Of a DNA stretch of 64,000 bases, positions 4,695-51,913 are shown piece by piece. Source of the DNA: a virus. The stretch covers positions 1 to 64,000 of the IMG/VR virus record IMGVR_UViG_3300046373_000196, one strand, 5' to 3'. The notes beneath the pieces are model-generated. The model made no database searches, had not been told where the DNA came from, and saw only the letters and a program-made list of their open reading frames with translations. Position 1 is the first letter of the stretch. Each line of letters starts with the position of its first letter. A program made the position numbers and the translations under genes.

Positions 4695-4723
4695 AAATAA
4701 ATATCTTCCTGTGATATTTATTT
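4695..4723. promoter_or_regulatory. 29-bp dyad promoter/operator element, copy 1
   Basis: AAATAAATATC-ttcctgt-GATATTTATTT. Lies upstream of the minus-strand gene starting at 4652. The -7-like TATATTTA (rc of 4682-4689) is only 5 bp from the arm, an outlier in spacing. Confidence 0.6.
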
Positions 4724-4761
4724 GTGTAATTTTTCGACCGTATGTGCGTATAGGCAACAGA

Positions 4762-5277
4762 TTAGGGAAGATTTACACAGGTTTCTGTGATGGATAGATT
4801 GCGCTTCATCCAACCGGCAAAGTATTTCTGTTTTATAGGTGCCTTATCAACGATCTTGTCGTAATAGTCAACCCGTGCCATTGCGTACTGCCAGGGAGTG
4901 ACATTGTGGATCTGCGCCATGGTCTTGTCGCCAAAGTTTCCATCTTCTTTTACGCCAATCACTTTTTGAAGAAGCTTTTTAGCTGCACCAACGCCTGCGT
5001 TAATAGCAAAATCAAGAACATGAAGCCTTATTTTAGCTGGTAAGCGGTCTGCACTGATCTCATTCCAGTAATCCCTTCGGTAAATGGCAAAAGCCTGGTC
5101 TTTGGTCAGGTTTTTAATGTCAACCTTTGGGTAAGAAGCGGCTGAAATGCCGTATTTAGTCCCTTTTAGTTCTCCTTTGCCGATCTTGCCGGTTGTCCAG
5201 TTGCCGGAATCGTCTTTATCGTCAGTAAAGGCACCTTCCTGATCAATGACGTATTTTATTGCTGTCTCGAAGTTCAT
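4762..5277 (-). CDS. endolysin, GH108-like lysozyme with PG_binding_3-like C-terminal domain
   Basis: IKYVIDQEGAFTDDKDDSGNWTTGKIG...GTKYGISAASYP...YRRDYW matches the GH108 pattern. DGNFGDKTMAQI matches the peptidoglycan-binding part. Confidence 0.75.
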   Translation of the reverse strand: MNFETAIKYVIDQEGAFTDDKDDSGNWTTGKIGKGELKGTKYGISAASYPKVDIKNLTKDQAFAIYRRDYWNEISADRLPAKIRLHVLDFAINAGVGAAKKLLQKVIGVKEDGNFGDKTMAQIHNVTPWQYAMARVDYYDKIVDKAPIKQKYFAGWMKRNLSITETCVNLP

Positions 5278-5278
5278 T

Positions 5279-5803
5279 TCAGAATAATAGTGTGTAGGAT
5301 AGAATAATCAGCCAGATGGCAAGTTTCCATAAGGCGTAAAGAAGAATGAAGGCAATGAGAATAAACGAGGCTGTGTAATAGATTGGAACGCGCTTAGGAG
5401 GTCTTTTGCCTATGAAGTCGTATTGTGTCCATCCCTGAATCGAAACCCAGCAGTGTCCGCCGTTCTTCCAGTTAGGGTAGTCGATTAGATTAAGCGTCCC
5501 GGCTAGTCCTTTGCCAAGAAAAGCCAGTTTGTCGTTCACCCAGTTCTTGCCGGTTGCTGAGCTGATCGTTTCATTCCGTGCTCCGTAGTGATAACCGCCT
5601 TTTTTAATGAACAGATCGTTTAGCATGGTTGCGTAGGCGATATTCCCATACACATCTTCTGCGTAGGCGGCATTTAAAAACGCCCTGTTAACGTAGTTCC
5701 AGCCACCTTTAAATCGGAATGCTCCGGCGATCGTGTGAAATAATGCAGGAACCTGCAATAAGTTTGATAATAGCTTTGCTAAAAGCCATAGGATGATGCC
5801 CAT
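5279..5803 (-). CDS. membrane protein adjacent to endolysin (holin candidate, atypical size)
   Basis: Hydrophobic N-terminus and a C-terminal TM pair (YYTASFILIAFILLYALWKLAIWLIILSYTLLF). There is a 1-bp gap to the endolysin gene. Confidence 0.4.
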   Translation of the reverse strand: MGIILWLLAKLLSNLLQVPALFHTIAGAFRFKGGWNYVNRAFLNAAYAEDVYGNIAYATMLNDLFIKKGGYHYGARNETISSATGKNWVNDKLAFLGKGLAGTLNLIDYPNWKNGGHCWVSIQGWTQYDFIGKRPPKRVPIYYTASFILIAFILLYALWKLAIWLIILSYTLLF

Positions 5804-5830
5804 TTATAGTGTGTGTTGTGTTTGGTTTAA

Positions 5831-6028
5831 TTATTGCAATTCTGGCACATATTTATAGCTATCGGCTATTGTCCAATCTTGAAAATTGATAACATTTCCG
5901 CTATCATTAATACATTCAAGAACCTGATCGCCTAAAATCCATAAATCACCTTTTGAATAAGGTAATGTCATTTTAAGATCGCCAATAGTGACGTTCCTTT
6001 TATAATTTAATACTTCTGTGTTAACCAT
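5831..6028 (-). CDS. hypothetical protein
   Basis: ORF track entry in an operon-like array. No motif recognised. Confidence 0.4.
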   Translation of the reverse strand: MVNTEVLNYKRNVTIGDLKMTLPYSKGDLWILGDQVLECINDSGNVINFQDWTIADSYKYVPELQ

Positions 6029-6048
6029 TGCTTAATTGATTAATGTTA

Positions 6049-6228
6049 TTAATATTTCTTATTTGGGTTAATAGCCGTTATTCTTATGTATCCATTACCT
6101 AAATCAGTGACAATATGATTATTTCTTAAATCAACAGCACCGGCAGCGCGAAGCCTATCTATCATAGGCGTATTTATCCAAGGGAATAAAAATTCGGCTC
6201 TTGTTTTTACTTTGCTTATCTTAATCAT
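6049..6228 (-). CDS. hypothetical small protein (59 aa)
   Basis: My translation: MIKISKVKTRAEFLFPWINTPMIDRLRAAGAVDLRNNHIVTDLGNGYIRITAINPNKKY. The start abuts the stop of 6229..6672. Below the ORF-track size cut-off. Confidence 0.35.
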   Translation of the reverse strand: MIKISKVKTRAEFLFPWINTPMIDRLRAAGAVDLRNNHIVTDLGNGYIRITAINPNKKY

Positions 6229-6672
6229 TTACGGTTTCGTTATAAAATCCTTAACCTTATCGAATACTGTACGCTTCGACTTTTTTTTTAAGTTGATCGT
6301 ATCAGGAAGTGACGGAGCGTTGACAACCAATGACGGATTAGAAGCAGGAATCTGCTTTACGTTTGGTGTTTTTCGGTACTGCTCGAAGCGTTCTTTCTTT
6401 TTTGCCACAGCAACGATAGCCTTTGCATTCTTCACACCCCATGCACTGTCCACCGCAACCAGACTATCAATCCTTGTCATGGATTTAGACTTCTCTGAAA
6501 GCTTAATTTGCGTACTGTCAGGAATCCTAACACCGATAACCGGGATAATGGAATCCCGAACAGTCTTTTGTTCATAAAATGAACTATGTTGTGACTTAAC
6601 GCCCATGCCCAGCAAAATAACAAGGCAAGCCAAAGGCAACAATGTTATCCAGTTTACATACTTAGTTTTCAT
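6229..6672 (-). CDS. N-terminally anchored or exported protein
   Basis: Internal Met chosen (MKTKYVNWITLLPLACLVILLGMGV...) because the upstream part of the tracked ORF overlaps 6662..7099. Confidence 0.45.
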   Translation of the reverse strand: MKTKYVNWITLLPLACLVILLGMGVKSQHSSFYEQKTVRDSIIPVIGVRIPDSTQIKLSEKSKSMTRIDSLVAVDSAWGVKNAKAIVAVAKKKERFEQYRKTPNVKQIPASNPSLVVNAPSLPDTINLKKKSKRTVFDKVKDFITKP

Positions 6673-9922: not shown

Positions 9923-9968
9923 TAAAATAGTGTGTGTAGAATACGGTCATAAAGATAATTAATTTTAT

Positions 9969-9997
9969 AAATAAATATTGTAGAATGATATTTATTC
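9969..9997. promoter_or_regulatory. 29-bp dyad promoter/operator element, copy 2 (bidirectional)
   Basis: AAATAAATATT-gtagaat-GATATTTATTC. -7 boxes TATGTTTG at 10012-10019 (+) and TATCTTTA (rc of 9950-9957, -). Confidence 0.7.
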
Positions 9998-10026
9998 TGT
10001 TGATTAATTAGTATGTTTGAGGCGTC

Positions 10027-10123: not shown

Positions 10124-10777
10124 ATGGAAAAAGAAAAGTATGAGACTCAAAAGGATTTGTTTTATATTCTTGAAAATTGGGTTAACGGAGATTACCAAGC
10201 CAATTATTTAAGAACTATCAATAGAGAAAACAAGAAATATTTAATTTCGGATTGCCAGCGATATGTAAAATCTTGGGATGTTCCTGGTCAGGATTACAAA
10301 TACACTTTTATATACAAGTGGGCAAGAAAGTACTTTAAAGATGATAGCGAGCTAGGATTTAGGCGTTCTATTGATAGGAATTCAAATACAGATGGTGTCA
10401 TGAATTACTCACTAGTTCAACCTTACGAAGTACAATGCAATGAAGATTTTAAAAAGTTATTTGAGGGCAAACATTTGAGTCTGTATGACTTTAATATTCC
10501 TACTAATCATCCCTTTTCTGGATGGGATTTAAAAACAGTCTCTTATCTGAAATCGCTATTTAAAACAAATGAAGTTTACGTTTTTTTTGATGATGGAATA
10601 GAAAGAAAGCCTCAATCTGACCTACATAAAACAGGTACTTTATTTCATATGAACCATTTCGGGATTGACAAAAAATTTATAAAAAACGATTTGCAGTATT
10701 ATAATAGAACTATCATTTTTTGGCTATTTGAAAACAGATTAGTTTTTAAATATGAATCGGGGAAAGATACTTGGTAG
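10124..10777 (+). CDS. hypothetical protein
   Basis: ORF track. First gene after promoter copy 2 and the leader. Confidence 0.5.
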   Translation: MEKEKYETQKDLFYILENWVNGDYQANYLRTINRENKKYLISDCQRYVKSWDVPGQDYKYTFIYKWARKYFKDDSELGFRRSIDRNSNTDGVMNYSLVQPYEVQCNEDFKKLFEGKHLSLYDFNIPTNHPFSGWDLKTVSYLKSLFKTNEVYVFFDDGIERKPQSDLHKTGTLFHMNHFGIDKKFIKNDLQYYNRTIIFWLFENRLVFKYESGKDTW

Positions 10778-10855
10778 TCATTATTAAACGCCTAGTGAGT
10801 ATTTGAGGCAGTTGATTGGAAAGGAAATTGAGAAAAGTAAAGGGAATTAAAGACT

Positions 10856-11041
10856 ATGAAAATTAAACTACCAAGAAAACGCAAGAAGCGATTTATAAAA
10901 GCTAAAAGTAGATACGATTATCATATGTGTTGTATTGCTAATGAGGTTCTGTTCGAAGAAATACCTTGGAGAAGCCGTACTAAGTTTCCTGAATTCTTGA
11001 ATGTTCCCGGTAAAAGATTGAAGGTTTTATTTAATTATTAA
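10856..11041 (+). CDS. hypothetical small basic protein
   Basis: ORF track. Confidence 0.4.
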   Translation: MKIKLPRKRKKRFIKAKSRYDYHMCCIANEVLFEEIPWRSRTKFPEFLNVPGKRLKVLFNY

Positions 11042-11045
11042 CACC

Positions 11046-11258
11046 ATGAAAATATCAGATTTACCGCCGGGATTGAAGGAGTTGGCGGAGAGGAGAAAGA
11101 GCGAATACCCATTAATATCTCAATCGAAAGATGTAACATTTGCTATTAGATGGAATAAAACACCCGAAGGGAAACATTTTTGGTTGAAGATTTCAGTTGG
11201 CAACTTCACTCCCTTCTACAACTGCAAAATTGTTAACTGTAAACCGAAAATGAAATGA
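11046..11258 (+). CDS. hypothetical small protein
   Basis: ORF track. The W..TPEGK.FW motif recurs in small phage proteins. Confidence 0.45.
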   Translation: MKISDLPPGLKELAERRKSEYPLISQSKDVTFAIRWNKTPEGKHFWLKISVGNFTPFYNCKIVNCKPKMK

Positions 11259-11656
11259 TTATGGATAAATTAAAATTTTGTTTTGGACTTTTTATTGTTG
11301 GAGGTATTCTGTTGTTTCTGGTTTTGCTCTGTATTGAAAAGGAGGAACAAGCACGATGGACTGAGTGCGGTATTGTGATTAACATGAAAGATGGTTTTGA
11401 TGTAGTAGAACATTACCACCATAAAAGGTCAACAACCGCTTCTCTTGAAAACAAACTTGTTTTGGTCATTAATTACAGTGGAGATTTCCGTACAGAAGAA
11501 GTTTCTGAAAACCTTTATTATCGCAAGCATATAGGCGATCCTATTTGTTTCACACGTCACCCAGAAGGCTGGGGGTTTGCAGTTTTTATGTCAGGTGTTA
11601 GTTTCGTTGTAATAGCTGTTATGTTCTTTTGGAATTTCATAAAACTATTTTTTTAG
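11255..11656 (+). CDS. membrane protein
   Basis: N-terminal TM (FGLFIVGGILLFLVLLCI) and C-terminal TM. 4-nt ATGA overlap with the upstream gene. Confidence 0.5.
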   Translation: MIMDKLKFCFGLFIVGGILLFLVLLCIEKEEQARWTECGIVINMKDGFDVVEHYHHKRSTTASLENKLVLVINYSGDFRTEEVSENLYYRKHIGDPICFTRHPEGWGFAVFMSGVSFVVIAVMFFWNFIKLFF

Positions 11657-11657
11657 A

Positions 11658-11942
11658 ATGGAAAAACTAACCAAAGAAGAGCAAATAGCTGTGTTGGATA
11701 TGGCTATTGAGAAGATCAAATCCAGAATTAGCCACTTCATGTGTACAGCCATAAATTTCTCTATATGTGATAAATTTTATACACATTTTAAAGATTGCGC
11801 TATCGAATGTTTCCCTGATTTGCTTGATTATAAACCTGCTGATTTGAAAGATGATAAGCAATGGTTTCCACCTCAAGAAGTTGAACGCCGCCTCGAAATT
11901 CTCACCAAAATGAAAAATGACCGGATCAATGGGATTATCTAA
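11658..11942 (+). CDS. hypothetical protein, tandem paralogue A
   Basis: Shares the pattern EQ..L..AIE...MC.AI....P.L..Y.P...WF...R..ILT with 11917..12198. Confidence 0.5.
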   Translation: MEKLTKEEQIAVLDMAIEKIKSRISHFMCTAINFSICDKFYTHFKDCAIECFPDLLDYKPADLKDDKQWFPPQEVERRLEILTKMKNDRINGII

Positions 11943-12198: not shown

Positions 12199-12200
12199 GT

Positions 12201-12581: not shown

Positions 12582-12582
12582 C

Positions 12583-12892: not shown

Positions 12893-13012
12893 TGGATATT
12901 TCGGAGAAGTTGACCACCTGATTCCGTGGCAAATTGACCAGCAAATTAGCTGGCGGCCGGAAGCAATAAATGCTGTAGAAGCGATGTCAAAATTAGTAAA
13001 TAAAAATTATAA

Positions 13013-13762
13013 TTACAGGTAACCGTTTTCGGTCTCCGGTTTACGCTTTCTTCTCATGGATTCTCCTTTTAATTCTATGCGGTGTGCGTCATGAACAATA
13101 CGATCTAAAATTGCATCCGCAATTGTTTTTTCTCCGATTACTTCGTGCCATTTGCTTACCGGTAATTGAGATGTGATGATAAGTGATGTCTTGCCATGCC
13201 TGTCTTCAATGATTTCCATCAGCGCTGCCCTGCTTTGAGCATCGAAGGGCTGGATGCCAAAGTCGTCAAGAATTAGGAGCTGCTGCCGCTCGATTTTAGC
13301 AATTTCTTTGATATAAGATCCGTCAGCCTTAGCCATTTTGAGCTTGGCAAAAAGTTTGGGAGTACTCGCGTAAAATACGCGGTAGCCCAGGATGCATGCC
13401 TGATGGCCAATCGCAGACGCTACATAACTTTTGCCGATCCCTGTGCTTCCAGTGATTAGCAGATTCTCGTTGCGTTCAATAAAAGTACACTCTGCCAGGC
13501 GTATAACCTGGTTGCGGTCGATACTCCGGTCAGCGTGGTAATGTACATTTTCAACCATGGCCTTATAGCGGAAGCGTGCAGACAGGATCTGCCGTTCTAC
13601 ACGACGGTTATTTCGATCATCCCATTCAGCGTCAACCAGATGAGCTAAAAGCTCATCTGGTGTATAATTGTTGGTCTGCCCGGTTTCCAGGCTACTTTTA
13701 AAGGCATGGAACATGCCGAAGAACTTAAGCTTGCGTAATTTTTCTAATGTGCTGCTATTCAT
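13013..13762 (-). CDS. istB: IS21-family helper ATPase IstB
   Basis: Walker A GSTGIGKSY, Walker B LLILDDFG, and a typical IstB N-terminus (KLKFFGM...). Confidence 0.9.
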   Translation of the reverse strand: MNSSTLEKLRKLKFFGMFHAFKSSLETGQTNNYTPDELLAHLVDAEWDDRNNRRVERQILSARFRYKAMVENVHYHADRSIDRNQVIRLAECTFIERNENLLITGSTGIGKSYVASAIGHQACILGYRVFYASTPKLFAKLKMAKADGSYIKEIAKIERQQLLILDDFGIQPFDAQSRAALMEIIEDRHGKTSLIITSQLPVSKWHEVIGEKTIADAILDRIVHDAHRIELKGESMRRKRKPETENGYL

Positions 13763-13782
13763 TTTATTAATTGTTTAAAGGA

Positions 13783-15333
13783 TTATTGATAGTAATCTTC
13801 GCCTCTGATATTATCATGTTTTGGCATTTGCAATTCGTCCGCAAAAAGACTGTCTTCATATTGATCCATGTTCTTCTCCAGGATGGTCTGGATTGTCTTG
13901 TAATTATATATCCCATAACTTAAGGCCCTTTGACAGGCGCTGATCAGTCTTTGTTCACCAGCCTTTTTTGCAAAAGATAAAATGCCGATACAGGAGCGGT
14001 AGGCCTGTTCGGGGTGCTGCTTACGGTCCAGGATTTTAAGGATATACAACCTGACATCTTCGTGGATTGATGCGGCCCATTCCAAAAAACGGTCAGGTGT
14101 CCAGTCTGTTACGAAGCGGTGCGTGCTGGCCAGATGTTCTTTATCCGTGGAATAACTGTAGGGGCTTTTAACACGCTTGTGCAGGGCTATGCGCTCGTAG
14201 TGATAGTACATCTCAACAAGAGAAGTAGAATATAAAAGCTTTACTTTTTTACCAATAAAGCGGTAAGGAACGCTATAATAGTGCTTATCTACCCCCAGGC
14301 AAACGTGACCGTTCTTCATTACCGTTACATGGGCGTGCTTTTTAAACTCATACCGCAGAAGCGGAAGCGGGGCCAGCGCAGAACGCTCAACTTCTTCAAA
14401 CTGAAGCCGACGGCTGTAATTACGTCCGCGCAGGAGCTGACTGTTATGTACTTCAAGTGCCTGAAGTATCGCAGAATTTAACTCAGAAAGTGAGCTGTAT
14501 ACCTGTTTTCTCAAAGGAGCATAGATCCGGCTGTAAACGATTTTAACCGCTCCTTCAACCAAGGCTTTATCGCGTGGTCGGTAAGCACGTGCAGGCAAAA
14601 TGGTAGTGCCATAATGATCAGCAAAATCAGCAAACGATTCATTCAGGGTAGGCTCATAACGGTGACTTTTAGTAACTGCTGCCTTTAAATTATCCGGAAC
14701 AATGGCAGCTGGAACACCGCCGATATAATGAAGTGTATTCTCGCAGGCAGCTATAAAATCTTCCTTCTGCTGGCTCATAACAGCTTCTACATAAGTAAGC
14801 TGACTAGCGCCAAGAATAGCAACAAATACCTCAACGTCAGTCACTTCTCCAGTCTCTTTATCTGTTAGATTCAGCTTGACGCCAGCAAAATCAACATATA
14901 ACTTATCACCTGCCTTGTGATCCTGATGCATCACAGGATTTACCCTGGCTTTCCATTTGGTTAAATGGAAGCAGAACTGGGTATAGGCAAAACCGTCGGG
15001 AAACTCTTTTTTATAGGCTTCCCAAAGCATGCGCCTATTTACTCCGGTTCGTTTTAGCTCCTTGTCAATATGGGGAAAACAACGCTGTAAGACCAGTAAA
15101 CGGTCCTGTGATGGTGGTTCTTTAACCGTGCCGAAAAAGTCGTCAAGTTCTTTATCATTGAGGCTGTTGATCTGTTCGAATGTAAGCCCGCTCGCATCAT
15201 AGGTAGCCATATACTTCTTGGCTGTATTACGCGAGACACCGGTCTGCTCAGCAATTGAAAGTTTGCTGCGACCTTGACTGTACATCCTTAAAATCTGTCT
15301 TATCTTACTCATGCTGATTGTCGAATTAGCCAT
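13783..15333 (-). CDS. istA: IS21-family transposase IstA
   Basis: N-terminal HTH (IRQILRMYSQGRSKLSIAEQTGVSRNTAKKY). DDE-type core with DFAG...D...E spacing typical of IstA. 516 aa. Confidence 0.9.
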   Translation of the reverse strand: MANSTISMSKIRQILRMYSQGRSKLSIAEQTGVSRNTAKKYMATYDASGLTFEQINSLNDKELDDFFGTVKEPPSQDRLLVLQRCFPHIDKELKRTGVNRRMLWEAYKKEFPDGFAYTQFCFHLTKWKARVNPVMHQDHKAGDKLYVDFAGVKLNLTDKETGEVTDVEVFVAILGASQLTYVEAVMSQQKEDFIAACENTLHYIGGVPAAIVPDNLKAAVTKSHRYEPTLNESFADFADHYGTTILPARAYRPRDKALVEGAVKIVYSRIYAPLRKQVYSSLSELNSAILQALEVHNSQLLRGRNYSRRLQFEEVERSALAPLPLLRYEFKKHAHVTVMKNGHVCLGVDKHYYSVPYRFIGKKVKLLYSTSLVEMYYHYERIALHKRVKSPYSYSTDKEHLASTHRFVTDWTPDRFLEWAASIHEDVRLYILKILDRKQHPEQAYRSCIGILSFAKKAGEQRLISACQRALSYGIYNYKTIQTILEKNMDQYEDSLFADELQMPKHDNIRGEDYYQ

Positions 15334-15396
15334 ACTTCCACACGATTGGTTCGTGTCAAAAGTAAGGTTGATTCCACAGCATTTTTTGCTCTACCC

Positions 15397-15517
15397 GGTG
15401 GTCAGTTTGCTCCGAATTCAGGTGGTCAATTTACTCCGAATTCGGGTAGTCAATTTCGCCCGGAACAGGTGGTCAGCTTAAACCGAATTGAGGTGGTCAG
15501 TTACACCGAATTTTCCA
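15397..15517. repeat. five direct subterminal repeats at the IS21 right end
   Basis: GGTGGTCAGTTTGCTCCGAATTCA / GGTGGTCAATTTACTCCGAATTCG / GGTAGTCAATTTCGCCCGGAACA / GGTGGTCAGCTTAAACCGAATTGA / GGTGGTCAGTTACACCGAATTTTCCA. Multiple transposase-binding repeats are a hallmark of IS21 ends. Confidence 0.8.
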
Positions 15518-15691: not shown

Positions 15692-15702
15692 ATTGTACTC
15701 TC

Positions 15703-20101: not shown

Positions 20102-20130
20102 AAATAAATATCGTAGATAGATATTTTTAT
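20102..20130. promoter_or_regulatory. 29-bp dyad promoter/operator element, copy 3 (bidirectional)
   Basis: AAATAAATATC-gtagata-GATATTTTTAT. -7 boxes TAGCTTTG at 20145-20152 (+) and TATCTTTG (rc of 20083-20090, -). Confidence 0.7.
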
Positions 20131-21819: not shown

Positions 21820-21848
21820 AAATAAATATCATAATACAATATTTATTT
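21820..21848. promoter_or_regulatory. 29-bp dyad promoter/operator element, copy 4 (head-tail operon)
   Basis: AAATAAATATC-ataatac-AATATTTATTT. -7 box TACATTTG at 21862-21869 (+). Confidence 0.7.
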
Positions 21849-36450: not shown

Positions 36451-36618
36451 TTAGGAGGCTGTCTCAATTTTTCCACTATTCTTGCGAGCCTTTTTAAGTT
36501 CTCTTGTAATCAGCTCCCTCAAATGCTCACTTGGCGTTGTTTCATTATTTTCACACAAGTCGGTGAACTCTTTTTTGACGTTGGCGCTTACCCGAACCGG
36601 TATCATTTTGTCTTTCAT
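36451..36618 (-). CDS. ribbon-helix-helix (CopG/Arc-like) DNA-binding protein, 55 aa
   Basis: My translation: MKDKMIPVRVSANVKKEFTDLCENNETTPSEHLRELITRELKKARKNSGKIETAS. This shows the beta-strand then two helices of the RHH pattern. It lies directly downstream of promoter copy 5. Confidence 0.6.
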   Translation of the reverse strand: MKDKMIPVRVSANVKKEFTDLCENNETTPSEHLRELITRELKKARKNSGKIETAS

Positions 36619-36666: not shown

Positions 36667-36695
36667 AAATAAATATCATCCTTAAATATTTATTT
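36667..36695. promoter_or_regulatory. 29-bp dyad promoter/operator element, copy 5
   Basis: AAATAAATATC-atcctta-AATATTTATTT. -7 box TACATTTG (rc of 36644-36651, -). Confidence 0.7.
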
Positions 36696-40733: not shown

Positions 40734-40762
40734 ATAAAAATATCGAATAAAGATATTTATTT
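40734..40762. promoter_or_regulatory. 29-bp dyad promoter/operator element, copy 6
   Basis: ATAAAAATATC-gaataaa-GATATTTATTT. -7 box TACCTTTG (rc of 40715-40722, -). It starts 10 bp after the argH stop. Confidence 0.7.
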
Positions 40763-44274: not shown

Positions 44275-44277
44275 GAC

Positions 44278-44676: not shown

Positions 44677-44736
44677 ACTTTCTCCTGTTAAGACTTTTCT
44701 CGAAGCCAGATGAATGATTGATAAATGATGTGATGG

Positions 44737-45345
44737 TTATTTTAAAGAGTTCAAAAAGTCTTCAACCCATTTGTTTGATTCATTGCAACGTTTTACTTCT
44801 TTTTTAAGCTCTTCGGAATGATAAATCAAGTCTTTGTTAGCTACCCTTTCTAAATTCTGGCGTATTTTATCTGGATCCATATTTTCTAATTCCAGATTAA
44901 TTTTAGCTAACTCTTCTTTATGATAATCTGCATTGTTATCAAAAGAAATAGTTTGCTTAATCTGATCAATCATAAAATCTTTAATTCCTACATGTTCAGA
45001 AGTGGGTGGAGTAAATGATTCAGCTTTAATGAGAAATTCATTTAATTTTATTTGCCCTGCAATACATTTGTCAAGTGCTTCTTCATGATAAGATTTAGAT
45101 TTAAGTAAATCAACTCTTCTTTCCTGAATTATAACCTCGTTTGACTTTTTATTTTTAAGTATTGACTTAGCTTTTTTAATTTCTTTCTTATGATAATCGC
45201 CCGGAATGCGTTTTTGATACTCAATTCCCATGTCTTCATCTCTCATATGAATAGTAGTACCGAACGCCCTCATACAATCCTTTGCGAAGTCTTCAAATGT
45301 TTTTGTTGTGCCGTCAATAATTCCGGCTGTATATCCTGTTGGCAT
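44737..45345 (-). CDS. hypothetical protein
   Basis: ORF track. Helical, charged C-terminal half. Confidence 0.45.
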   Translation of the reverse strand: MPTGYTAGIIDGTTKTFEDFAKDCMRAFGTTIHMRDEDMGIEYQKRIPGDYHKKEIKKAKSILKNKKSNEVIIQERRVDLLKSKSYHEEALDKCIAGQIKLNEFLIKAESFTPPTSEHVGIKDFMIDQIKQTISFDNNADYHKEELAKINLELENMDPDKIRQNLERVANKDLIYHSEELKKEVKRCNESNKWVEDFLNSLK

Positions 45346-45387
45346 ATTGGTGTTATGATTAATAACTGTTATGTGTATACGATTACT

Positions 45388-46104
45388 TTATGCTGCTACT
45401 TGCTGAACATATTTCTTTGTCCAAATCTCCCTGATGTATTCCATCAATGCGGTGAATGATTTGATAAATCCGGCATCAATGGTGAAGGCCAAATTATTTT
45501 CAAGGCGTTCCAATTCTTTTAACTGCTCTTCTGTGCCAGTATTGCGAATACCCGTTTCATGTCTTCCAAAAACAACATGGTTTAATGCCTTAGATAAAGA
45601 AGCGTAATCAACATCTTTAAATTTGGAAACAGCCTTGGATAAATCCTTATACATATTACCGGCTTCAATTCTGTTGAGAATTAACTTGTCGGTCAACCAA
45701 GTAACGACTTCGCCATATAGCATAGGGTTCATTTCCATCGCAATCAACACCCATATATAAGGGTTACACGATGTACTCTTATCTGCTCTACGTCCACGGG
45801 TGACATAACAGTTGATAGATTTCAAAACCTTTGTAAGTCCGTCTTTTTTAACCATTTCCATAAAAGCGGGAAAACCCGTTTTTATGAATCCTTGCTTTTC
45901 AAGTATGTAGTAGGCGCGTTCTGCATTGTTTACTGACGCAAGAATGTCGCTAACTCTTTTATCACTCCATCCATGCAAAGACCTTGCAGTTGCATAAGCA
46001 TCTTGCAAATCTGAAAGATTCAAAAATCCAGTTTTAGTTTCTTGTCTAATCGTTATGCCGAACAAATCCCTGCTTTGGCTTGAAAGTGTTACATTGGTTT
46101 TCAT
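45388..46104 (-). CDS. KilA-N domain-like DNA-binding protein
   Basis: LFGITIRQETKTGFLNLSDLQDAYA fits the KilA-N N-terminal pattern. Confidence 0.5.
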   Translation of the reverse strand: MKTNVTLSSQSRDLFGITIRQETKTGFLNLSDLQDAYATARSLHGWSDKRVSDILASVNNAERAYYILEKQGFIKTGFPAFMEMVKKDGLTKVLKSINCYVTRGRRADKSTSCNPYIWVLIAMEMNPMLYGEVVTWLTDKLILNRIEAGNMYKDLSKAVSKFKDVDYASLSKALNHVVFGRHETGIRNTGTEEQLKELERLENNLAFTIDAGFIKSFTALMEYIREIWTKKYVQQVAA

Positions 46105-46134
46105 AGAAATTTAGTTTGTTAAGAAGTGAATACG

Positions 46135-46404
46135 TCAGGCATTTAATAAATTCAGTAGCTCATTCCTTGCAACTTCCGTTTTTGACTTAATATCCTTAAA
46201 TTCCGGCTCGAATTCACGAATGATGTTTACGGATGTTTTAAGAAACAAAGCAAACTGCTCAGGACTTGGCTTTGCCCTTCCTTTTCGCCAGTGATGGACA
46301 GTACCCCTTAATTCAGGGAATACGTCATAAAATTTCTTTGTGGCTCCCGGAATGCTTTTTAGCCTGGTTAATGTAATGTCGATTAATTCTGCTGTATCAT
46401 TCAT
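46135..46404 (-). CDS. small putative regulator
   Basis: First gene leftward of bidirectional promoter copy 7. Small, basic and helical. No firm HTH call. Confidence 0.35.
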   Translation of the reverse strand: MNDTAELIDITLTRLKSIPGATKKFYDVFPELRGTVHHWRKGRAKPSPEQFALFLKTSVNIIREFEPEFKDIKSKTEVARNELLNLLNA

Positions 46405-46447
46405 TTGCTGTTAATTGATGTGCGTTACAAATGTATGTTTTTTATTG

Positions 46448-46476
46448 AAATAAATATCATAAAAAGATATTTATTT
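46448..46476. promoter_or_regulatory. 29-bp dyad promoter/operator element, copy 7
   Basis: AAATAAATATC-ataaaaa-GATATTTATTT (perfect dyad). -7 box TACATTTG (rc of 46428-46435, -). The plus-strand ATG at 46493 is only 17 nt away. Confidence 0.7.
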
Positions 46477-46492
46477 TTACAATTAATTATTT

Positions 46493-47101
46493 ATGTCCGA
46501 ATTCCCGATTGAATTACAGGAACTGATTAATCAAAAATCCATTGGCGGGAAGTATTTGGGAGATAAGCTTTTAGAAATGCAGCGGTCATTCCCTGAATTT
46601 AATTTTTACTGGGATAAACCAAGTTGGCTATCAACTGGACATTATCTAATGGCTGAAAAACCTGTTCCGTTCAAACTGTACAACATTTACGGACAAGTGA
46701 AGCGTTGGTTTTTAGATGTGATCACCAAGGCTCAGGAACTTGAAAAGAAAGGGGATATTGAATCAGCGATCTGGGCGTATGAGACGTTGATTGAGCACAG
46801 ATACCCTAATTATAAGCCTTATGATTTATTAATCGCTCTTTACCGAAAAAACAAGGATGTGGTCAATGAAGTACGGGTGCTCAATCATTCTATCAACTTC
46901 TTTACTGCGCTTCGTGAGAATCAAAGAATCTACGTGTTGTCCCTGGCAAAGAAGGTCTGGATGACCGAGAAGTGCCAAGAGCTTCTTAACAAAGGCGAAA
47001 AGATTCACTATTATGGCGGCTCGTTCGTGCTTTATGATCCGGTGAAGGCGATGGTGAAGTGGGAAAAGAGGTTGGATAGTTTAAAGTTGTTGGAGGAGTA
47101 G
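46493..47101 (+). CDS. hypothetical protein, TPR-like helical repeats
   Basis: GDIESAIWAYETLIEHRYPNYKPYDLLIALYRKNKD. The only plus-strand gene inside the 31.6-51.5 kb block. Confidence 0.45.
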   Translation: MSEFPIELQELINQKSIGGKYLGDKLLEMQRSFPEFNFYWDKPSWLSTGHYLMAEKPVPFKLYNIYGQVKRWFLDVITKAQELEKKGDIESAIWAYETLIEHRYPNYKPYDLLIALYRKNKDVVNEVRVLNHSINFFTALRENQRIYVLSLAKKVWMTEKCQELLNKGEKIHYYGGSFVLYDPVKAMVKWEKRLDSLKLLEE

Positions 47102-47103
47102 GA

Positions 47104-47463
47104 TTATATATCCTCAATTACAATAACTGTTTTCTGTTCGCCTTTCGTTTTCACCTTTACCTGCTTGTATTCTCGCTCTGAAATTATGCTTTCTTTGTCA
47201 TCTAATATCACTCTAGCAAGTACAATGCTATCCACCGGTATCTTTCCTGTTGAAACTAAATTGTCATAGTCGAGAGGTTGTGTCAAGTAGTACCGCGTTA
47301 AATTAAGCTTCACTTTGCCTTGGTGCCTATTTTTAGTTAAGACTTTAACTAGCCATGTAAATTGGTCACGAAGTTTATTCCTTGCAGTCCAGTGCATCCT
47401 TAAAAGCCCTTTTGACCCATTATTACCAGGCAGAACGCCGGGAAATATCAATTCAGTTTTCAT
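47104..47463 (-). CDS. RusA-like Holliday junction resolvase
   Basis: About 120 aa. LDYDNLVSTGKIPVDSIVLARVILDD matches the RusA D.DN...K...D....DD pattern. Confidence 0.5.
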   Translation of the reverse strand: MKTELIFPGVLPGNNGSKGLLRMHWTARNKLRDQFTWLVKVLTKNRHQGKVKLNLTRYYLTQPLDYDNLVSTGKIPVDSIVLARVILDDKESIISEREYKQVKVKTKGEQKTVIVIEDI

Positions 47464-47480
47464 AGTGTGTGTTCAATTAT

Positions 47481-47702
47481 TCAGCCTCTTAAATACTGGT
47501 AGGTAATAACACCTTTTTTAAGTGCGCTGGCTGCAATTCCCAAATAGAATACCTTAATTTTACTTTGATCATCCGTCCATCCATATCCAAGATCATCTGG
47601 ATTTATGGTACGAACATCTTCCTCTGATTCTGCACATCCGACAAATTCAGTAATTTTATCCCAATCGTCTTCGTGGTACGCTTTTACAAGATAAAGGTTC
47701 AT
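47481..47702 (-). CDS. hypothetical protein
   Basis: ORF track. Confidence 0.4.
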   Translation of the reverse strand: MNLYLVKAYHEDDWDKITEFVGCAESEEDVRTINPDDLGYGWTDDQSKIKVFYLGIAASALKKGVITYQYLRG

Positions 47703-47719
47703 AGTTGATTGTTTTAAAT

Positions 47720-47962
47720 TCAGGCATTATACCGTTCAAAGTCTTTACGGCTTAGTTCAATGATGTTAGTAAGGATAATACCAGTAAAGCTTTTATTGCT
47801 ATTTCTGATATAAGTAATCATTTCTTTAAATGACGGATAGAGCTTTTCTGATTGCATTACCGTCGATCCCTCTGAAAGACCCTGACCGAATTGACCTTCA
47901 GCCTTAAAGAACAGAATGAAATATCTTTTCCTGTTAAACAGGTTTTTAATGAATTGTAGCAT
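47720..47962 (-). CDS. hypothetical protein
   Basis: ORF track. Confidence 0.4.
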   Translation of the reverse strand: MLQFIKNLFNRKRYFILFFKAEGQFGQGLSEGSTVMQSEKLYPSFKEMITYIRNSNKSFTGIILTNIIELSRKDFERYNA

Positions 47963-47973
47963 GTGATTTTAGT

Positions 47974-48408
47974 TTATTTCCGTTCAACTCCGGCAGCAAT
48001 CCGGAAAATATCAGTTCCTAGTTTTTCGACTACTTTGTCAATGACTTCGCTCGTATTAGCTGCAATTTGTATCTGAGAGTGTATTTTTGACGCTTTTTGT
48101 GCAATACTCAGCCCAATATCATTTCTGTTTTCATTGTAATACCAGTAATATTTCCATAGATCTTTCGTATCACTTGGATTTTTCTCATTTTCTTCCTGTA
48201 TTGCCTGATTGATCGTGCTCAGAGCCAGTGTGTCAATCTTTTGAAGATAAGGCCTTTCAAGATGCTCTCTGGCTTTCTCGATAATCTCCCAATCCGATAA
48301 TTCCTTTTTCACTTCTTCGACCACAAGCATTTTATACTTCTTTCCTTCATACTCTTCAAAAATGAAGGTTCCTAAAATTTGGTTACCCGGACTTGTTATT
48401 GTTTCCAT
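47974..48408 (-). CDS. hypothetical protein
   Basis: ORF track. Confidence 0.45.
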   Translation of the reverse strand: METITSPGNQILGTFIFEEYEGKKYKMLVVEEVKKELSDWEIIEKAREHLERPYLQKIDTLALSTINQAIQEENEKNPSDTKDLWKYYWYYNENRNDIGLSIAQKASKIHSQIQIAANTSEVIDKVVEKLGTDIFRIAAGVERK

Positions 48409-48562
48409 TATTTCTGAATATAAAATAAAATACGATTGGTAAATAAATTACTGAAAGCATGGACATTGTGAAGGCTCTGGGATCGTCAATCAACCACCAG
48501 CACAACGCAGTGAAACAAACAGTGAGTAAAAATGACATCAGGACTGAACGAATCTTACTCAT
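48383..48562 (-). CDS. small two-TM membrane protein (59 aa)
   Basis: My translation: MSKIRSVLMSFLLTVCFTALCWWLIDDPRAFTMSMLSVIYLPIVFYFIFRNNGNNNKSG. Confidence 0.4.
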   Translation of the reverse strand: MSKIRSVLMSFLLTVCFTALCWWLIDDPRAFTMSMLSVIYLPIVFYFIFRNNGNNNKSG

Positions 48563-48565
48563 ATT

Positions 48566-48745
48566 TTAATTTCCCCAGTTAGGTAGGTAGCTAATGTACC
48601 ACTTTCCTATCGTAATGCACTTTCTTAACTTGTTACGCTCCGAAAACAGCAGCTGATGTTTTTCCAGGTTCTTCCATTTGAAGCCTATGCTAAATATTCG
48701 TATCCAGCCGCCGCCGTTGTAGATGTAGTAGGAGAAATTTCTCAT
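48566..48745 (-). CDS. hypothetical small protein (59 aa)
   Basis: My translation: MRNFSYYIYNGGGWIRIFSIGFKWKNLEKHQLLFSERNKLRKCITIGKWYISYLPNWGN. Tightly packed between neighbouring genes. Confidence 0.35.
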   Translation of the reverse strand: MRNFSYYIYNGGGWIRIFSIGFKWKNLEKHQLLFSERNKLRKCITIGKWYISYLPNWGN

Positions 48746-48754
48746 AATTTTATT

Positions 48755-49117
48755 TCAATAATTACCCCATGAATACCCAAATACTGTATAAATCAATTTC
48801 AATTCTCTTTCTGATCGCCACCAATTGCGACGTAACCTCCATTCATATCGAACCAGCCAATAAAACAAAATGATGATTGAAGGATTTCTTAATTGGGGAA
48901 AGTTTTCATTTCCTAAAACAGATATTAAATCATTAGAATATTTATTAATAAAGGATTCCAGTCTTTCAATCTCCACCGGATATTCATTATAAAAGGCGGC
49001 TACTTCGGTTAATAACTGAAAATGTTCTGCATTCTCAACAAATGGTTTTCCTGTTAACTTTTTAAAGGCATCATAGATAACCGGGATTACATAATCTTTT
49101 TGATCTGGTGCTATCAT
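48755..49117 (-). CDS. hypothetical protein
   Basis: ORF track. Confidence 0.45.
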   Translation of the reverse strand: MIAPDQKDYVIPVIYDAFKKLTGKPFVENAEHFQLLTEVAAFYNEYPVEIERLESFINKYSNDLISVLGNENFPQLRNPSIIILFYWLVRYEWRLRRNWWRSERELKLIYTVFGYSWGNY

Positions 49118-49419
49118 TTCCCCATCTTTAAATACTCCCCAAAACCAATACTGTAATCACTCATTTCACTTATATATTCCATCCACTCCCATATCTTACC
49201 TTTGGGCACATCGTTATCAATATCGTAGCGTATGTCCTCGTATTGAAAATATTGTCCAGCAATGTGAATCGTTTCGCCCGTTTTATCTGCTACCCAAAAT
49301 CCACTTTGCACATTATTTTTCCTGCAAAACTGCTCCACGTAGGTGTTAGCCAGTTTATCGAAGCGGTCTTTGAGAGATGGGGTTTTTGGTGCTGACATGT
49401 TAGTTTCCTGTACTGCCAT
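49114..49419 (-). CDS. hypothetical protein
   Basis: ORF track. Confidence 0.45.
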   Translation of the reverse strand: MAVQETNMSAPKTPSLKDRFDKLANTYVEQFCRKNNVQSGFWVADKTGETIHIAGQYFQYEDIRYDIDNDVPKGKIWEWMEYISEMSDYSIGFGEYLKMGK

Positions 49420-49873
49420 ATCCTAACCCACGACCATATTCAACCAATTCATCCACTGCTTCAAATTCAATCGGAATGACTTCTTCCAAATAAATTTGAC
49501 CTATGCGATCACCTTTTTTGTAGGGGAATGGTGAGATTACTTTAGAGAATAAATTAAATAAAGAGAACATATCAAATAGTTGACGCGAAACAGGTAAACA
49601 CCTAAATCTTAGCTGATATTCTTCTGTGAAGTCACAATCTCCCAATCCTGGTGAGTTCTGAATTAGCCAAGGTGTTTTCGTAATTGAGCTACGAGGGACC
49701 AACGTTACTTTGTATCCTACTGGCGGCTGCATGGCAAATCCAAGCTTACAGATAACATACCCCGGATACACTTCTTCAATTTCTGTAGCTACAACATCCC
49801 AACCTCCTGCATATTCAGTGGCTTGTTTTGGCATTACAGCGTCAGGGTGTATCTTTTTGATTTTTACTAGCAT
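49400..49873 (-). CDS. dut: dUTP diphosphatase
   Basis: dUTPase motifs: AGGWDV, VPRSS, GLGDCDFTEEYQ, GDRIGQ and RGLGYGSTG. Confidence 0.8.
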   Translation of the reverse strand: MLVKIKKIHPDAVMPKQATEYAGGWDVVATEIEEVYPGYVICKLGFAMQPPVGYKVTLVPRSSITKTPWLIQNSPGLGDCDFTEEYQLRFRCLPVSRQLFDMFSLFNLFSKVISPFPYKKGDRIGQIYLEEVIPIEFEAVDELVEYGRGLGYGSTGN

Positions 49874-49877
49874 GGTA

Positions 49878-50492
49878 TTATTGGGTCACTTTGGTATAAA
49901 TTACTTTTCTATTCCCCGGTTCTTCGAATTCTAATGTCCGTCGTCCCGGTAGTATTTTTAGTTTATTACTTATGTCAAGTGTAATTTTGTCGCCTGACAT
50001 CTCATAGTTAAACTTCATCGGATCTTGATTATTTCGATAATACATGTTCATTATTGTAGGCGTAAATGATAACTTGTATCCATCTTTGTTAATCCAAACC
50101 GTACCGTTTAGTGTGTTTTCTGTTTTGAGGTAAAATACCCCTTCAATCTTCAATATCGAATCAACTCTGTTATCAGAAAAATGAGTAAAATGAAAACTAT
50201 CATCTATTATTTCGTCCATAAATGCCACCGATTCTGCACGTTGCATTTTAAGCGGACTTTTATAAATAAAAGGATAAGCTAATGTGTCAAACAACTCTGT
50301 TCTGGCAAATTTCTTATGCTTTATTTTCAAAACAGCGTACTTATTCGCAAACGTTAGTGAATAGTAGACAGAATCTTTCTCTCCTTTTCGCCATACTGGG
50401 TTCGTTGCCCAAATCGTCCCTTCCAACTTATTTCCTTGTCCATACCCTACCAAAGAAGCAAATAGCAGGAATGCGAGTAAAATGTTTTTCAT
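49878..50492 (-). CDS. exported protein
   Basis: Signal peptide MKNILLAFLLFASLVGYGQG. Confidence 0.5.
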   Translation of the reverse strand: MKNILLAFLLFASLVGYGQGNKLEGTIWATNPVWRKGEKDSVYYSLTFANKYAVLKIKHKKFARTELFDTLAYPFIYKSPLKMQRAESVAFMDEIIDDSFHFTHFSDNRVDSILKIEGVFYLKTENTLNGTVWINKDGYKLSFTPTIMNMYYRNNQDPMKFNYEMSGDKITLDISNKLKILPGRRTLEFEEPGNRKVIYTKVTQ

Positions 50493-50496
50493 GATT

Positions 50497-50748
50497 TCAG
50501 ATAGTTGATTGTAACTTTATAAGCTCACCTACTGCTGATTCGTAATCGGGATGCTCCTTAGGTGCGAATCCATTGATAACCAGTTTATAGTTATTCCTGA
50601 TTTTGCTGTAATAGATGTAAAAATTACAAGAATCCGTTTCTTTAAACTTCTCGCCCCATAGGTATGTTTTAATAATATTCCAATCACCTTTTCGGTGCCA
50701 CACTAACTTCCATTCAGGAAAAAATATGTATTTGAATACTCTTATCAT
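50497..50748 (-). CDS. hypothetical protein
   Basis: ORF track. Confidence 0.4.
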   Translation of the reverse strand: MIRVFKYIFFPEWKLVWHRKGDWNIIKTYLWGEKFKETDSCNFYIYYSKIRNNYKLVINGFAPKEHPDYESAVGELIKLQSTI

Positions 50749-50755
50749 ATTATCC

Positions 50756-50989
50756 TTAAACCTCTTTAAATTGCGAATTAAACCTACTTTCAGAAACCAT
50801 ATTCCAGATCACACGTTCAGATTCTTCCCCCGATCCGTTGACCTTCGGATAAACAGTGCCTATTTTAATCACTCCATCTTTTCGGGCACACAAATACTCT
50901 TTCCCGTTATTCTGCTTCACTTTGATTGTGTCGGGGAAATTTGGAACGGAGGCGGATAGTTGGGGTTCGGTTGGTAGTTGTTCGGTCAT
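50756..50989 (-). CDS. hypothetical protein
   Basis: ORF track. Confidence 0.4.
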   Translation of the reverse strand: MTEQLPTEPQLSASVPNFPDTIKVKQNNGKEYLCARKDGVIKIGTVYPKVNGSGEESERVIWNMVSESRFNSQFKEV

Positions 50990-51016
50990 TGGTATTTTTA
51001 GTAAGATAAAAAATAT

Positions 51017-51385
51017 TTACAAACCAGATTTAGGTGTTTCTCCGTGGAAATATTCGTTAACAACAATTATCTTATCGGCTTCAAAATAAGGATCTTTACC
51101 CATTTCTGGACCACCATATAAAACGTACTTGTCACCCACCATACCAACAAAGAGAGAAGGCCAATGACCTTTATTTCCATATGTGTCGATTACATATACC
51201 AAATCACCACTTTCTGGTTTAATAAGTTCTACATCTTTCAATACAAAAACTGTTTCGTGCTTTTCAAAATCATCCTTTGAAAATGGAGTACATAAATACA
51301 ACCCTTGAAACATGGTTATAAATCTTAAAATCTTTCCTCCATCTGGATCTTTAACTAAATCTTCTGATTGCAGCTCTTTGTCCAT
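51017..51385 (-). CDS. hypothetical protein
   Basis: The internal Met at 51385 (MDKELQSEDL...) was chosen. The upstream part of the tracked ORF looks non-coding. Confidence 0.4.
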   Translation of the reverse strand: MDKELQSEDLVKDPDGGKILRFITMFQGLYLCTPFSKDDFEKHETVFVLKDVELIKPESGDLVYVIDTYGNKGHWPSLFVGMVGDKYVLYGGPEMGKDPYFEADKIIVVNEYFHGETPKSGL

Positions 51386-51541
51386 TTTACTTCTGTTTTC
51401 AATTAAATTATTAAACAATCCAGAACCCCTAGACCGGTAATACCGCCAACTACTGAGAGAATTTTTAAGTGTTGGAAAACTGAATTGTTGTTGTGGGTTC
51501 CTGCCGTGCATTCAATGAGAATGCTAGTCAACCCTATGCCG

Positions 51542-51614
51542 TCGCGAATATCAGAATTGAACTGATGACCTTTGGTTTATGAATCCAACGCTCTACCAAC
51601 TGAGCTAATTCGCA
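51542..51614 (-). tRNA. tRNA-Met/Ile2 type, anticodon CAT, with non-canonical 1:72 U.G and 31:39 A.A
   Basis: Hand-folded cloverleaf: acceptor TGCGAAT/ATTCGCG, U8, D arm GCTC-AGTTGGTA-GAGC, anticodon arm TTGGA-TTCATAA-ACCAA, variable loop AGGTC, T arm ATCAG-TTCAATT-CTGAT, discriminator A. No CCA is encoded. Confidence 0.75.
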
Positions 51615-51884
51615 TTTTCTTTGCTCAACCGGGAAGATGCGTCTAACTTCTTCCCGGCCACCAACCTTTAATCAGAACATCCACCTTGCAGACTTCTGAG
51701 CGTGATTTTTATTTCATAGATGCGCTTTCCAAGCTATAAAATTAAGGTTCGAACTAAAAAGAGGAAACCCCAATCGGTAGAAGGCGACTGGGGTTAGGCG
51801 GAACACTAATTCCGTGAAACAATGTTCGCGCCTTCTACCTCGAGGACATTGTTAATTGCTCTGTAAACATACAAATAATTTCAA

Positions 51885-51913
51885 TATAAAATATCTTTCT
51901 ACGATATTTATTT
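51885..51913. promoter_or_regulatory. 29-bp dyad promoter/operator element, copy 8 (distal tail operon)
   Basis: TATAAAATATC-tttctac-GATATTTATTT. -7 box TAACTTTG at 51926-51933 (+). Confidence 0.7.

Follow-up and report, generated by a model that had tools for sequence, protein, structure and literature searches.

What reads a palindrome that recurs at promoters across a virus genome, and does its reader switch those promoters on or hold them off? This question is raised by positions 1 to 64,000 of the IMG/VR virus record IMGVR_UViG_3300046373_000196, a 64-kb stretch referred to here as the window. A sequence-only reading had noticed eight copies of a dyad element there, fused to -7 boxes of the Bacteroidota type, and had proposed that they form one regulon. 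The follow-up analysis finds these eight sites and a ninth outside the window, all of them at promoters in which the dyad stands where the -33 element would be expected, in a genome whose remaining promoters are of a different kind. Very probably a dimer encoded by the phage binds the dyad, and the sites make up one regulon separate from the CI/Cro switch; activation is the sign of control preferred below, with some reserve.

The window was scanned for AAATAAATATC-N7-GATATTTATTT with up to three mismatches, and 100 dinucleotide-preserving shuffles served as the control. Eight copies were recovered exactly where they had been reported, with 0-3 mismatches over the 22 specified bases, and the 100 shuffles gave none. 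Under a symmetrised weight matrix built from the copies they score 25.9-34.5 bits, and there is no tail of weak sites because nothing else in the window exceeds 12 bits. The core ATATC-N7-GATAT, with at most one mismatch, occurs 15 times in the window against 2.8 expected, the eight copies being among the 15. Lone half-sites outside the dyads, at the same tolerance, number 7 against 5.8 in the shuffles. Enrichment is thus confined to the paired form, and the arms are conserved, as expected from the earlier description of a unit made of two half-sites and a free 7-nucleotide (nt) spacer, with the geometry 11-7-11 (arm-spacer-arm). Every copy lies between called genes, as had also been claimed, in a window of which 9.6% is intergenic. 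In the 79.2-kb genome that could be joined from the window and overlapping sequence there are nine copies, all intergenic, the ninth outside the window.

Among the 18 half-sites of the nine copies, 10 are exactly AAATAAATATC, and each copy has at least one perfect arm. The arms are rich in A/T tracts, and each half-site conserves its one G/C position. The seven spacer positions show no conservation and the nine spacers are all different, GTAGA being common to copies 2, 3 and 8. The flanks differ as well, except in two paralogous pairs: copies 2 and 3 are paralogous to the left and to the right of the dyad, and copies 5 and 7 share the extended identity of about 55 bp that had been noted from the sequence, yet their gaps to the -7 box differ by 3 bp. 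Changes in the arms are one-sided, for example a C opposite A in copies 4 and 5, and compensatory changes are absent, which implies that a hairpin is not the selected feature. This bears on the reading of the dyad as an element of DNA transactions or of RNA, that is, as a tyrosine-recombinase core or a hairpin or terminator. The 11-7-11 geometry does resemble that of lox, FRT and dif-type sites, the copies stand at module borders, which are not the same from one relative to another, and an 11-bp stem can form. Strand exchange, however, needs an identical overlap, which nine different spacers do not offer. The RNA stems consist of A-U pairs only (-3.9 to -9.3 kcal/mol), two of five folded copies (4 and 6) were not clearly better than shuffles, and distinct GC-rich terminators adjoin copies 4 and 5. 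Neither version explains the register with the -7 boxes, and this reading is extremely improbable.

The copies, the boxes that they face and the genes behind them are given below in window coordinates unless stated otherwise; gaps are counted from the arm to the box and aa stands for amino acids.

4695..4723, copy 1, perfect dyad between the GH108 endolysin gene (4762-5277, minus strand) and the GDSL lipase gene (3018-4652, minus strand); its sole -7-like box, TATATTTA, is on the minus side, 5 bp from the arm, an outlier
9969..9997, copy 2, bidirectional, with TATGTTTG at 10012-10019 (plus strand, gap 14 bp) and TATCTTTA at 9950-9957 (minus strand, gap 11 bp); heads the minus-strand unit from 9922 to 4762 (600-aa protein through to the endolysin) and the plus-strand unit from 10124 to 16775
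20102..20130, copy 3, bidirectional, with TAGCTTTG at 20145-20152 (plus strand, gap 14 bp) and TATCTTTG at 20083-20090 (minus strand, gap 11 bp)
21820..21848, copy 4, facing the plus strand, 3' of a terminator hairpin, with TACATTTG at 21862-21869 (gap 13 bp); heads the head-tail operon from 21910 to 31508, with the major capsid protein at 23274-24371 and the tape measure at 27222-31508
36667..36695, copy 5, facing the minus strand, with TACATTTG at 36644-36651 (minus strand, gap 15 bp); the first gene encodes an RHH-like protein (36451-36618, minus strand)
40734..40762, copy 6, facing the minus strand, with TACCTTTG at 40715-40722 (minus strand, gap 11 bp); heads the unit from 40595 to 36744, which includes an AAA ATPase at 38406-39434
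46448..46476, copy 7, perfect dyad, with TACATTTG at 46428-46435 (minus strand, gap 12 bp) heading the unit from 46404 to 40772; on the plus side no clear -7 box separates the arm from the ATG of a 202-aa gene, 16 nt away
51885..51913, copy 8, the weakest at 25.9 bits, with TAACTTTG at 51926-51933 (plus strand, gap 12 bp) before the distal tail genes from 51957 to 58896; on the minus side TATGTTTA (gap 13 bp) faces tRNA-Met (51541-51614) and the unit down to 47104
71755-71783 of the joined genome (L097 19261-19289), copy 9, AAATAAATATCCAATAACAGTATTTATTT, outside the window and directly after the last early gene (DUF4494); its -7-like box, TACATTTA, is 2 bp from the arm

The nine -7 boxes of the sequence-only reading are all present at the positions given there, with gaps of 11-15 bp, and copy 1 is indeed the 5-bp outlier that it was taken for. 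Copy 7 likewise has a clear box on the minus side only. Copy 8 had been classed as unidirectional and has to be corrected, since its minus-side box, facing the tRNA, makes it probably bidirectional. Together the nine dyads head about 12 units that span about 67 kb and include all structural, lysis and accessory genes.

Beyond the ninth dyad, about 120 nt of sequence before the YopX gene (L097 19300-19440) fold into three hairpins (-34.7 kcal/mol, z = -2.7), the last of which is a GC-rich stem followed by UUUCUUCAUUUUUG; the stretch has no Rfam match. The arrangement recalls lambda PR'/6S, and the stretch may encode a small RNA or act as a regulated terminator.

A TAnnTTT[G/A] box stands 11-15 bp from the arm at 10 of the 18 dyad flanks, where 0.086 would be expected from the genome-wide frequency of the box. 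The ten gaps are 11, 11, 11, 12, 12, 13, 13, 14, 14 and 15 bp, with the outliers at 5 bp (copy 1) and 2 bp (copy 9). Eight of the 12 dyad-linked boxes are exactly TAnnTTTG and four end in A, and conversely, of the 11 consensus TAnnTTTG boxes that the window has between genes, 8 are dyad-linked. At the ten promoters the centre of the dyad lies 26-30 bp upstream of the T of the -7 box. Bacteroides promoters carry a TAnnTTTG box centred at -7 and a second element (TTTG) at -33 (PMC7366714). If the boxes here are likewise centred at -7, the start sites inferred from them would place the dyad centre between about -38 and -42. With this numbering the GATAT core of the proximal arm coincides with the -33 position, and -33 is covered in 12 of 12 promoters, including the two close-spaced outliers, so that what had been suggested for the proximal arm extends to all of them. 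A TTG 16-22 nt upstream of the box is found at none of the 12 dyad promoters; both promoters without a dyad have it. At none of the 12 does the dyad overlap the -7 box or the inferred start site. The clearly unidirectional promoters (copies 4-7) retain both arms, the distal one being near-perfect.

Where the dyad is missing, promoters look different. A block of 12.8 kb (58.9-71.7 kb of the joined genome) has no dyad of 12 bits or more and holds the gene for a 141-aa protein resembling helix-turn-helix (HTH) proteins, a tyrosine integrase gene, an attP-like region, CI-like and cro-like genes, and replication and recombination genes. Its early operon, divergent from the CI-like gene, encodes a Lin1244-type replication protein, DnaB, a NinB-like protein, RecT, YqaJ, a C5 methylase and DUF4494. 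The whole genome has only two intergenic promoters of the form TTG-N17-21-TAnnTTTG, at 61547-61576 and 65875-65905, and both are in this block, with spacers of N19/20 after the TTG box. The first of them is the early promoter:

61547..61576, plus strand, early promoter, canonical TTG-N19-TATATTTG

On either side it has TTGATAA half-sites in inverted orientation (61547, with the reverse complement at 61581), and a palindrome TTGAT-N5-ATCAA lies over its -33 element. These inverted repeats are probably CI/Cro operators, with a specificity other than that of the dyad. There are thus two promoter classes in this genome, canonical -33/-7 and dyad, which are mutually exclusive in architecture and in location. 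The proposal of one regulon over the whole element therefore fits all structural, lysis and accessory units and fails for the dyad-free block with its canonical promoters; the copies stand at the head of nearly every transcription unit outside that block.

Three repeats of the type TAGTCAC(A/G)(A/G)AAC lie at 60807-61028, within the 295-bp gap that precedes the integrase gene, and are likely attP arm sites.

With both classes in view, the dyads could still be factor-independent promoter cassettes, in which the AT-rich arms act as an UP-like or -33-region element and the symmetry is a relic of duplicated bidirectional cassettes. Copies 2, 3 and 8 are bidirectional, the pairs 2/3 and 5/7 are paralogous beyond the dyad, and the A/T tracts of the arms would suit such a role. 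Duplication does not explain, however, why the G/C position of each half-site is conserved when the spacers and most flanks are not, why copies 4-7 keep a near-perfect distal arm, or why lone half-sites are not enriched. Moreover, the early promoters of the same phage use a normal TTG at -33, and the exact motif is absent from the host-type genomes scanned. This reading is improbable; if the promoters did prove constitutive, the finding would reduce to a duplicated promoter cassette.

Comparison with other sequences shows how far the dyad reaches beyond this phage. The exact 22-base motif has three unrelated matches in 185,579 reference genomes (596 Gb), none of them in Bacteroidota, and eight single-copy loci in metagenomes with no meaningful DNA similarity to the window. 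A search of viral contigs with a degenerate core gave 82 single-copy, chance-like matches, and a -7-like box stood in register at 5 of 94 sites. About 34 kb of chromosomal loci from Cytophagales contain no dyad site. Searches with proteins led to three distant relatives with genomes of 78-81 kb and capsid or tail proteins 40-76% identical, and none of the three carries the dyad.

The relatives have other motifs at orthologous promoters, even where the tail proteins are 58-76% identical. The closest, IMGVR_UViG_2894352420_000001, has its own 20-nt motif, ATATTTAYATTGTAAGTATA, in three copies (L107 1947; L108 972, minus strand; L109 2367, minus strand), and all three sites are orthologous to promoters here: two divergent promoters, one separating the head operon from a 170-aa exported protein and the other the tRNA from the tail genes, and the site next to the homologue of the 202-aa gene. 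This motif has only weak symmetry (12-14 of 17 positions) and stands at varying distances from the -7 boxes; at least two copies have -7 boxes on both sides, and an internal TTG stands 17, 20 or 23 nt from the box. In the third relative (L084) another repeat is found at the head promoter, and this repeat contains a canonical TTG-N19. A promoter sequence that is phage-specific at orthologous sites and uniform within each genome points to a trans-acting specificity factor encoded by the phage. Because the motif differs between phages and agrees within each genome, both a host factor and a generic AT-rich element are disfavoured.

The possibility of a host global regulator, with the phage plugged into the host regulon, has to be weighed against the same searches. 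No phage-encoded binder has been assigned, and many bacterial transcription factors have sites of dyad form. Against this, the reference genomes gave three matches outside Bacteroidota, metagenome and viral contigs gave single copies only, the Cytophagales loci had no site, and related phages of similar hosts use other motifs at the orthologous promoters. A host regulator is therefore very improbable. The earlier argument that the element is the site of a dimeric, phage-specific regulator and not a plain -33 element is supported by the paired enrichment, the one-sided arm changes, the two arms kept at unidirectional promoters and the different motifs of the relatives.

Several observations were made alongside this comparison. 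The 202-aa gene beside copy 7 (46493-47101) has homologues 46-64% identical in all three relatives, at different positions, and in the closest relative the homologue adjoins that phage's own motif. A tRNA-like sequence was seen by eye in the closest relative (L105 about 14040-14200), in the same tRNA/tail arrangement and with a different promoter motif. Two metagenome contigs (L092 3234-3408 and L093 3920-3999) carry tandem arrays with sites 51-73 bp apart and the same outer arms; L092 has a lambda-like inner core (TATCAC-N5-GTGATA) and L093 the spacer GCTTTGC. Neither shows DNA similarity to the window, and both look like operator arrays of unrelated elements.

What remains is the sign of control. 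We tentatively favour activation, with the dyad as a class-II-like activator site that marks a delayed promoter class, though with somewhat less than even confidence. In this model one dimeric, sequence-specific protein encoded by the phage would bind the dyad in place of the -33 element at promoters of the host sigma-A polymerase. Placed some 40 bp before the start, with its proximal half-site on the -33 position, the dimer would recruit host RNA polymerase, or stabilise it, at promoters with a good -7 box and no -33 TTG. The dyad-free block, with its CI/Cro-type switch and canonical promoters, would be expressed first. A product of this early block, or the 89-aa protein encoded behind copy 7 by positive feedback from that perfect site, would then turn on all other units together, and site strength (25.9-34.5 bits) might grade the timing. 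The fuller version, in which a single dimeric protein replaces the sigma-A/-33 contact at about 12 promoters while site strength and positive feedback order a 67-kb gene set, is rather unlikely.

The near-constant upstream position of the dyad is typical of class II sites. An activation cascade would also be economical, because a CI-type repressor alone could silence the prophage if all other units needed an early product. There is no TTG at -33, and the dyads keep clear of the -7 box and the start site, over which repressors are most effective. Positive feedback, in turn, fits better than autorepression because the promoter of the 89-aa gene has a perfect site and the tail promoter (copy 8) has the weakest.

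A number of points weigh against activation. Spacing is not strictly fixed, given the range of 11-15 bp, the 3-bp difference between copies 5 and 7, and copies 1 and 9 at 5 and 2 bp. The -7 boxes are near consensus and the DNA upstream is AT-rich, so these promoters could work without any factor. In the early block no gene could be recognised as that of an activator. The head promoter of the relative L084 is a canonical TTG-N19 promoter, and fast divergence of a motif between relatives is more typical of the repressor-operator pairs of immunity systems. In addition, the -33 element is weakly conserved in Bacteroidota and not detectable in F. johnsoniae (PMC7366714). The missing -33 element is thus weak evidence, being also partly forced by the overlapping arm.

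The same points feed the main competitor of activation, in which the nine dyads are dispersed operators of a phage repressor and constitute a second immunity system. A dimeric repressor produced by the lysogen, or a small Xre or RHH protein that regulates its own gene, would occupy them, block the contacts of sigma region 4 and the alpha subunit at -33, and silence every non-early unit. Coverage of the -33 region in all 12 promoters, close-spaced outliers included, speaks for such a block, and variable spacing suits occlusion better than stereospecific activation. The -7 boxes are near consensus, and the -33 element is weak in this phylum; two dyad-driven units begin with the gene of a small putative DNA-binding protein; the motif is replaced in relatives as it is in heteroimmune phages; and the canonical head promoter of L084 implies that late promoters in this group may need repression. 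This reading, however, calls for a second repressor besides the CI/Cro-type switch, and no site lies over a -7 box or a start. Ten sites stand at nearly one upstream position, whereas the operators of P1, L5 and phiC31 vary in this respect. An autorepressing 89-aa protein would own the strongest site and leave the weakest to the lysis and tail promoters, a poor arrangement for tight silencing, and the immunity region with the CI-like and cro-like genes has no dyad of 12 bits or more. Repression is accordingly a serious possibility that we nevertheless consider doubtful.

Which protein would read the dyad, on either account, can be narrowed to a few candidates.

46135..46404, minus strand, 89-aa protein with the Xre-like motif VHHWRKGRAKPSPEQ, named a YiaG-type regulator in the JGI annotation
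36451..36618, minus strand, second candidate, a 55-aa RHH-like protein whose gene comes first behind copy 5 (Pfam E 0.0012, short of the family threshold)
58957..59382, minus strand, 141-aa protein encoded downstream of the integrase gene, with an AT-hook-like KRKPGRPKK, a C-terminal HTH signature (...WLLTGQGEM) and a weak match to phrog_8, third candidate
61030..61527, minus strand, CI-like Xre protein of 165 aa, divergent from the early operon

The 89-aa protein, first gene behind the perfect copy 7, is the best candidate. Its predicted structure (predicted local distance difference test, pLDDT, 85.7) has three short helices and a C-terminal helix of 40 residues, which could be the dimerising element. 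A Foldseek search of the model against the PDB gave nothing below E = 1, a homologue search in 5.8 billion proteins returned only the protein itself, and a sequence search of the PDB gave two lectin matches at E of about 0.25. The 141-aa protein is a candidate that would suit a half-site composed of an A/T-only outer part and an inner ATATC. Its predicted structure is unusable (pLDDT 45.6); its homologue search returned only itself, tblastn against phages found none, and the PDB sequence search gave no match, as it gave none for DUF4494. The 202-aa neighbour of copy 7 had one weak tblastn match in phages. The CI-like protein is an unlikely dyad binder because different inverted repeats stand at its own promoter. 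No Mor/C or Ogr homologue and no protein of the CRP/FNR family was detected in the phage.

DUF4494, as the last early gene, was considered as a Q-like or late activator and is unlikely to be one, since the same family occurs as a lone chromosomal gene by mutS in Cytophagales-type contigs. In these contigs (L110-L113) it is a conserved single gene near mutS and a pseudouridine synthase gene, and it is not phage-specific.

The genome around the element was recovered by way of the 89-aa protein, which besides the window was found solely on a 79,327-bp JGI contig. A 53.8-kb Logan contig (SRR35490202) starts inside the window, passes its right end and re-enters at the left end. Once the pieces were joined and the overlaps checked, a circular or permuted genome of 79,200 bp was obtained, of which the window makes up 64 kb and 15.2 kb lie outside. 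It is the complete genome of a temperate siphophage from a metagenome; because the attP-like region is intact and the 79.2-kb circle has no flanking host DNA, it represents a free phage genome and not an integrated prophage. Besides the genes already mentioned it encodes a small terminase, a large terminase and an SPP1-type portal (the last two just outside the window), distal tail proteins, a tail-fibre-like protein, a dUTPase and a protein of the fumarate-lyase family. The tRNA-Met gene stands opposite the distal tail genes at their divergent promoter, and the Rfam scan found the tRNA only. Most of the approximately 70 proteins scanned against Pfam and PHROGs received no annotation. The nearest named phage is Riemerella phage PJN03, whose capsid protein is 44% identical and whose genome has no dyad; megablast of 25 kb against deposited phages gave no match. 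The host probably belongs to the Cytophagales, as the DUF4494 homologues point to hosts such as Dyadobacter, Telluribacter and Larkinella.

One insertion splits the plus-strand unit driven from copy 2 without belonging to the regulon itself:

12903..15507, minus strand, IS21-family insertion with istA at 13783-15333 (minus strand), istB at 13013-13762 (minus strand) and multiple TGGTCA-type terminal repeats at both ends

The insertion also disposes of the idea of a Mu-like phage with Mor/C regulators, as the rve/Mu-transpos_C_2 protein is the IstA of IS21 (36% identical to IstA-type proteins, with IstB adjoining). The replication and integration genes of the phage are integrase, DnaB and RecT and not a Mu-type transposase A/B.

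The minus-strand block at 31586-51511 consists of about 45 mostly unannotated small genes (the units of copies 5, 6 and 7 and the minus-side unit of copy 8), and the distance from the tape measure to the 202-aa gene is about 15 kb here against about 4.6 kb in the closest relative. Units with a dyad at their head behave like exchangeable cassettes.

To our knowledge, very little has been described on transcriptional control in those Bacteroidota phages that rely on the host sigma-A polymerase, and we know of no description of such a dyad-promoter design in Bacteroidota. A literature search on palindromic promoter elements or operators in Bacteroidota phages, and on DUF4494, gave nothing relevant. 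With two promoter classes in one genome, nine near-identical sites and few candidate binders, this phage offers a testable case. If the proposed role of the dyad is correct, it would show how upstream recognition at Bacteroidota promoters is bypassed or blocked, and it would provide a compact orthogonal pair of regulator and operator for genetic tools in the phylum. If a single dimer does act as outlined above, this would be the first class-II-like or appropriation-like activation to be described for the unusual primary sigma factor of Bacteroidota.

Set against the canonical Bacteroidota sigma-A promoter (PMC7366714), the dyad promoters have a consensus or near-consensus -7 box in 10-12 cases, and the TTG at -33 is absent with GATAT in its place. 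Among operators, P1 C1 sites, the conserved inverted repeats of phiC31 and the stoperators of L5 and Bxb1 are similar in that many copies of a short intergenic site are spread over the genome of a temperate phage. The P1 and L5 sites are asymmetric and vary in position relative to promoters, whereas here the dyad is strict, its position is near-constant and the immunity region has no site. Closer in architecture are class II CRP/FNR promoters and lambda CI at OR2/PRM, where a dimer-type site lies about 40 bp upstream with the proximal half-site over -35/-33. The core ATATC-N7-GATAT (5-7-5) may be compared with TGTGA-N6-TCACA and, like it, can serve divergent promoters; unlike class II CRP/FNR sites, for which a centre near -41.5 is characteristic, the centres span about -38 to -42 and do not keep to a single position.

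The activator-dependent late promoters of other phages include those of Mu C and Mor (a dyad near -43.5), of P2/186 Ogr and B (TGT-N12-ACA) and of P1 Lpa (an inverted repeat that replaces the -35 element). In the Mu C/Mor, P2 Ogr and P1 Lpa systems, dispersed promoters have a good -10-type element and a phage-specific dyad instead of the upstream hexamer, and one small phage protein switches a set of operons; the same is proposed here. The differences are that the promoter is of the Bacteroidota sigma-A type (-7 TAnnTTTG), that the dyad is longer (11-7-11), that its spacing varies by up to 4 bp, and that it also drives accessory and early-looking units besides the structural genes. The design is therefore known from other phages, and what is new is its context, namely -33-replaced Bacteroidota sigma-A promoters in a temperate phage of Cytophagales type without characterised relatives.

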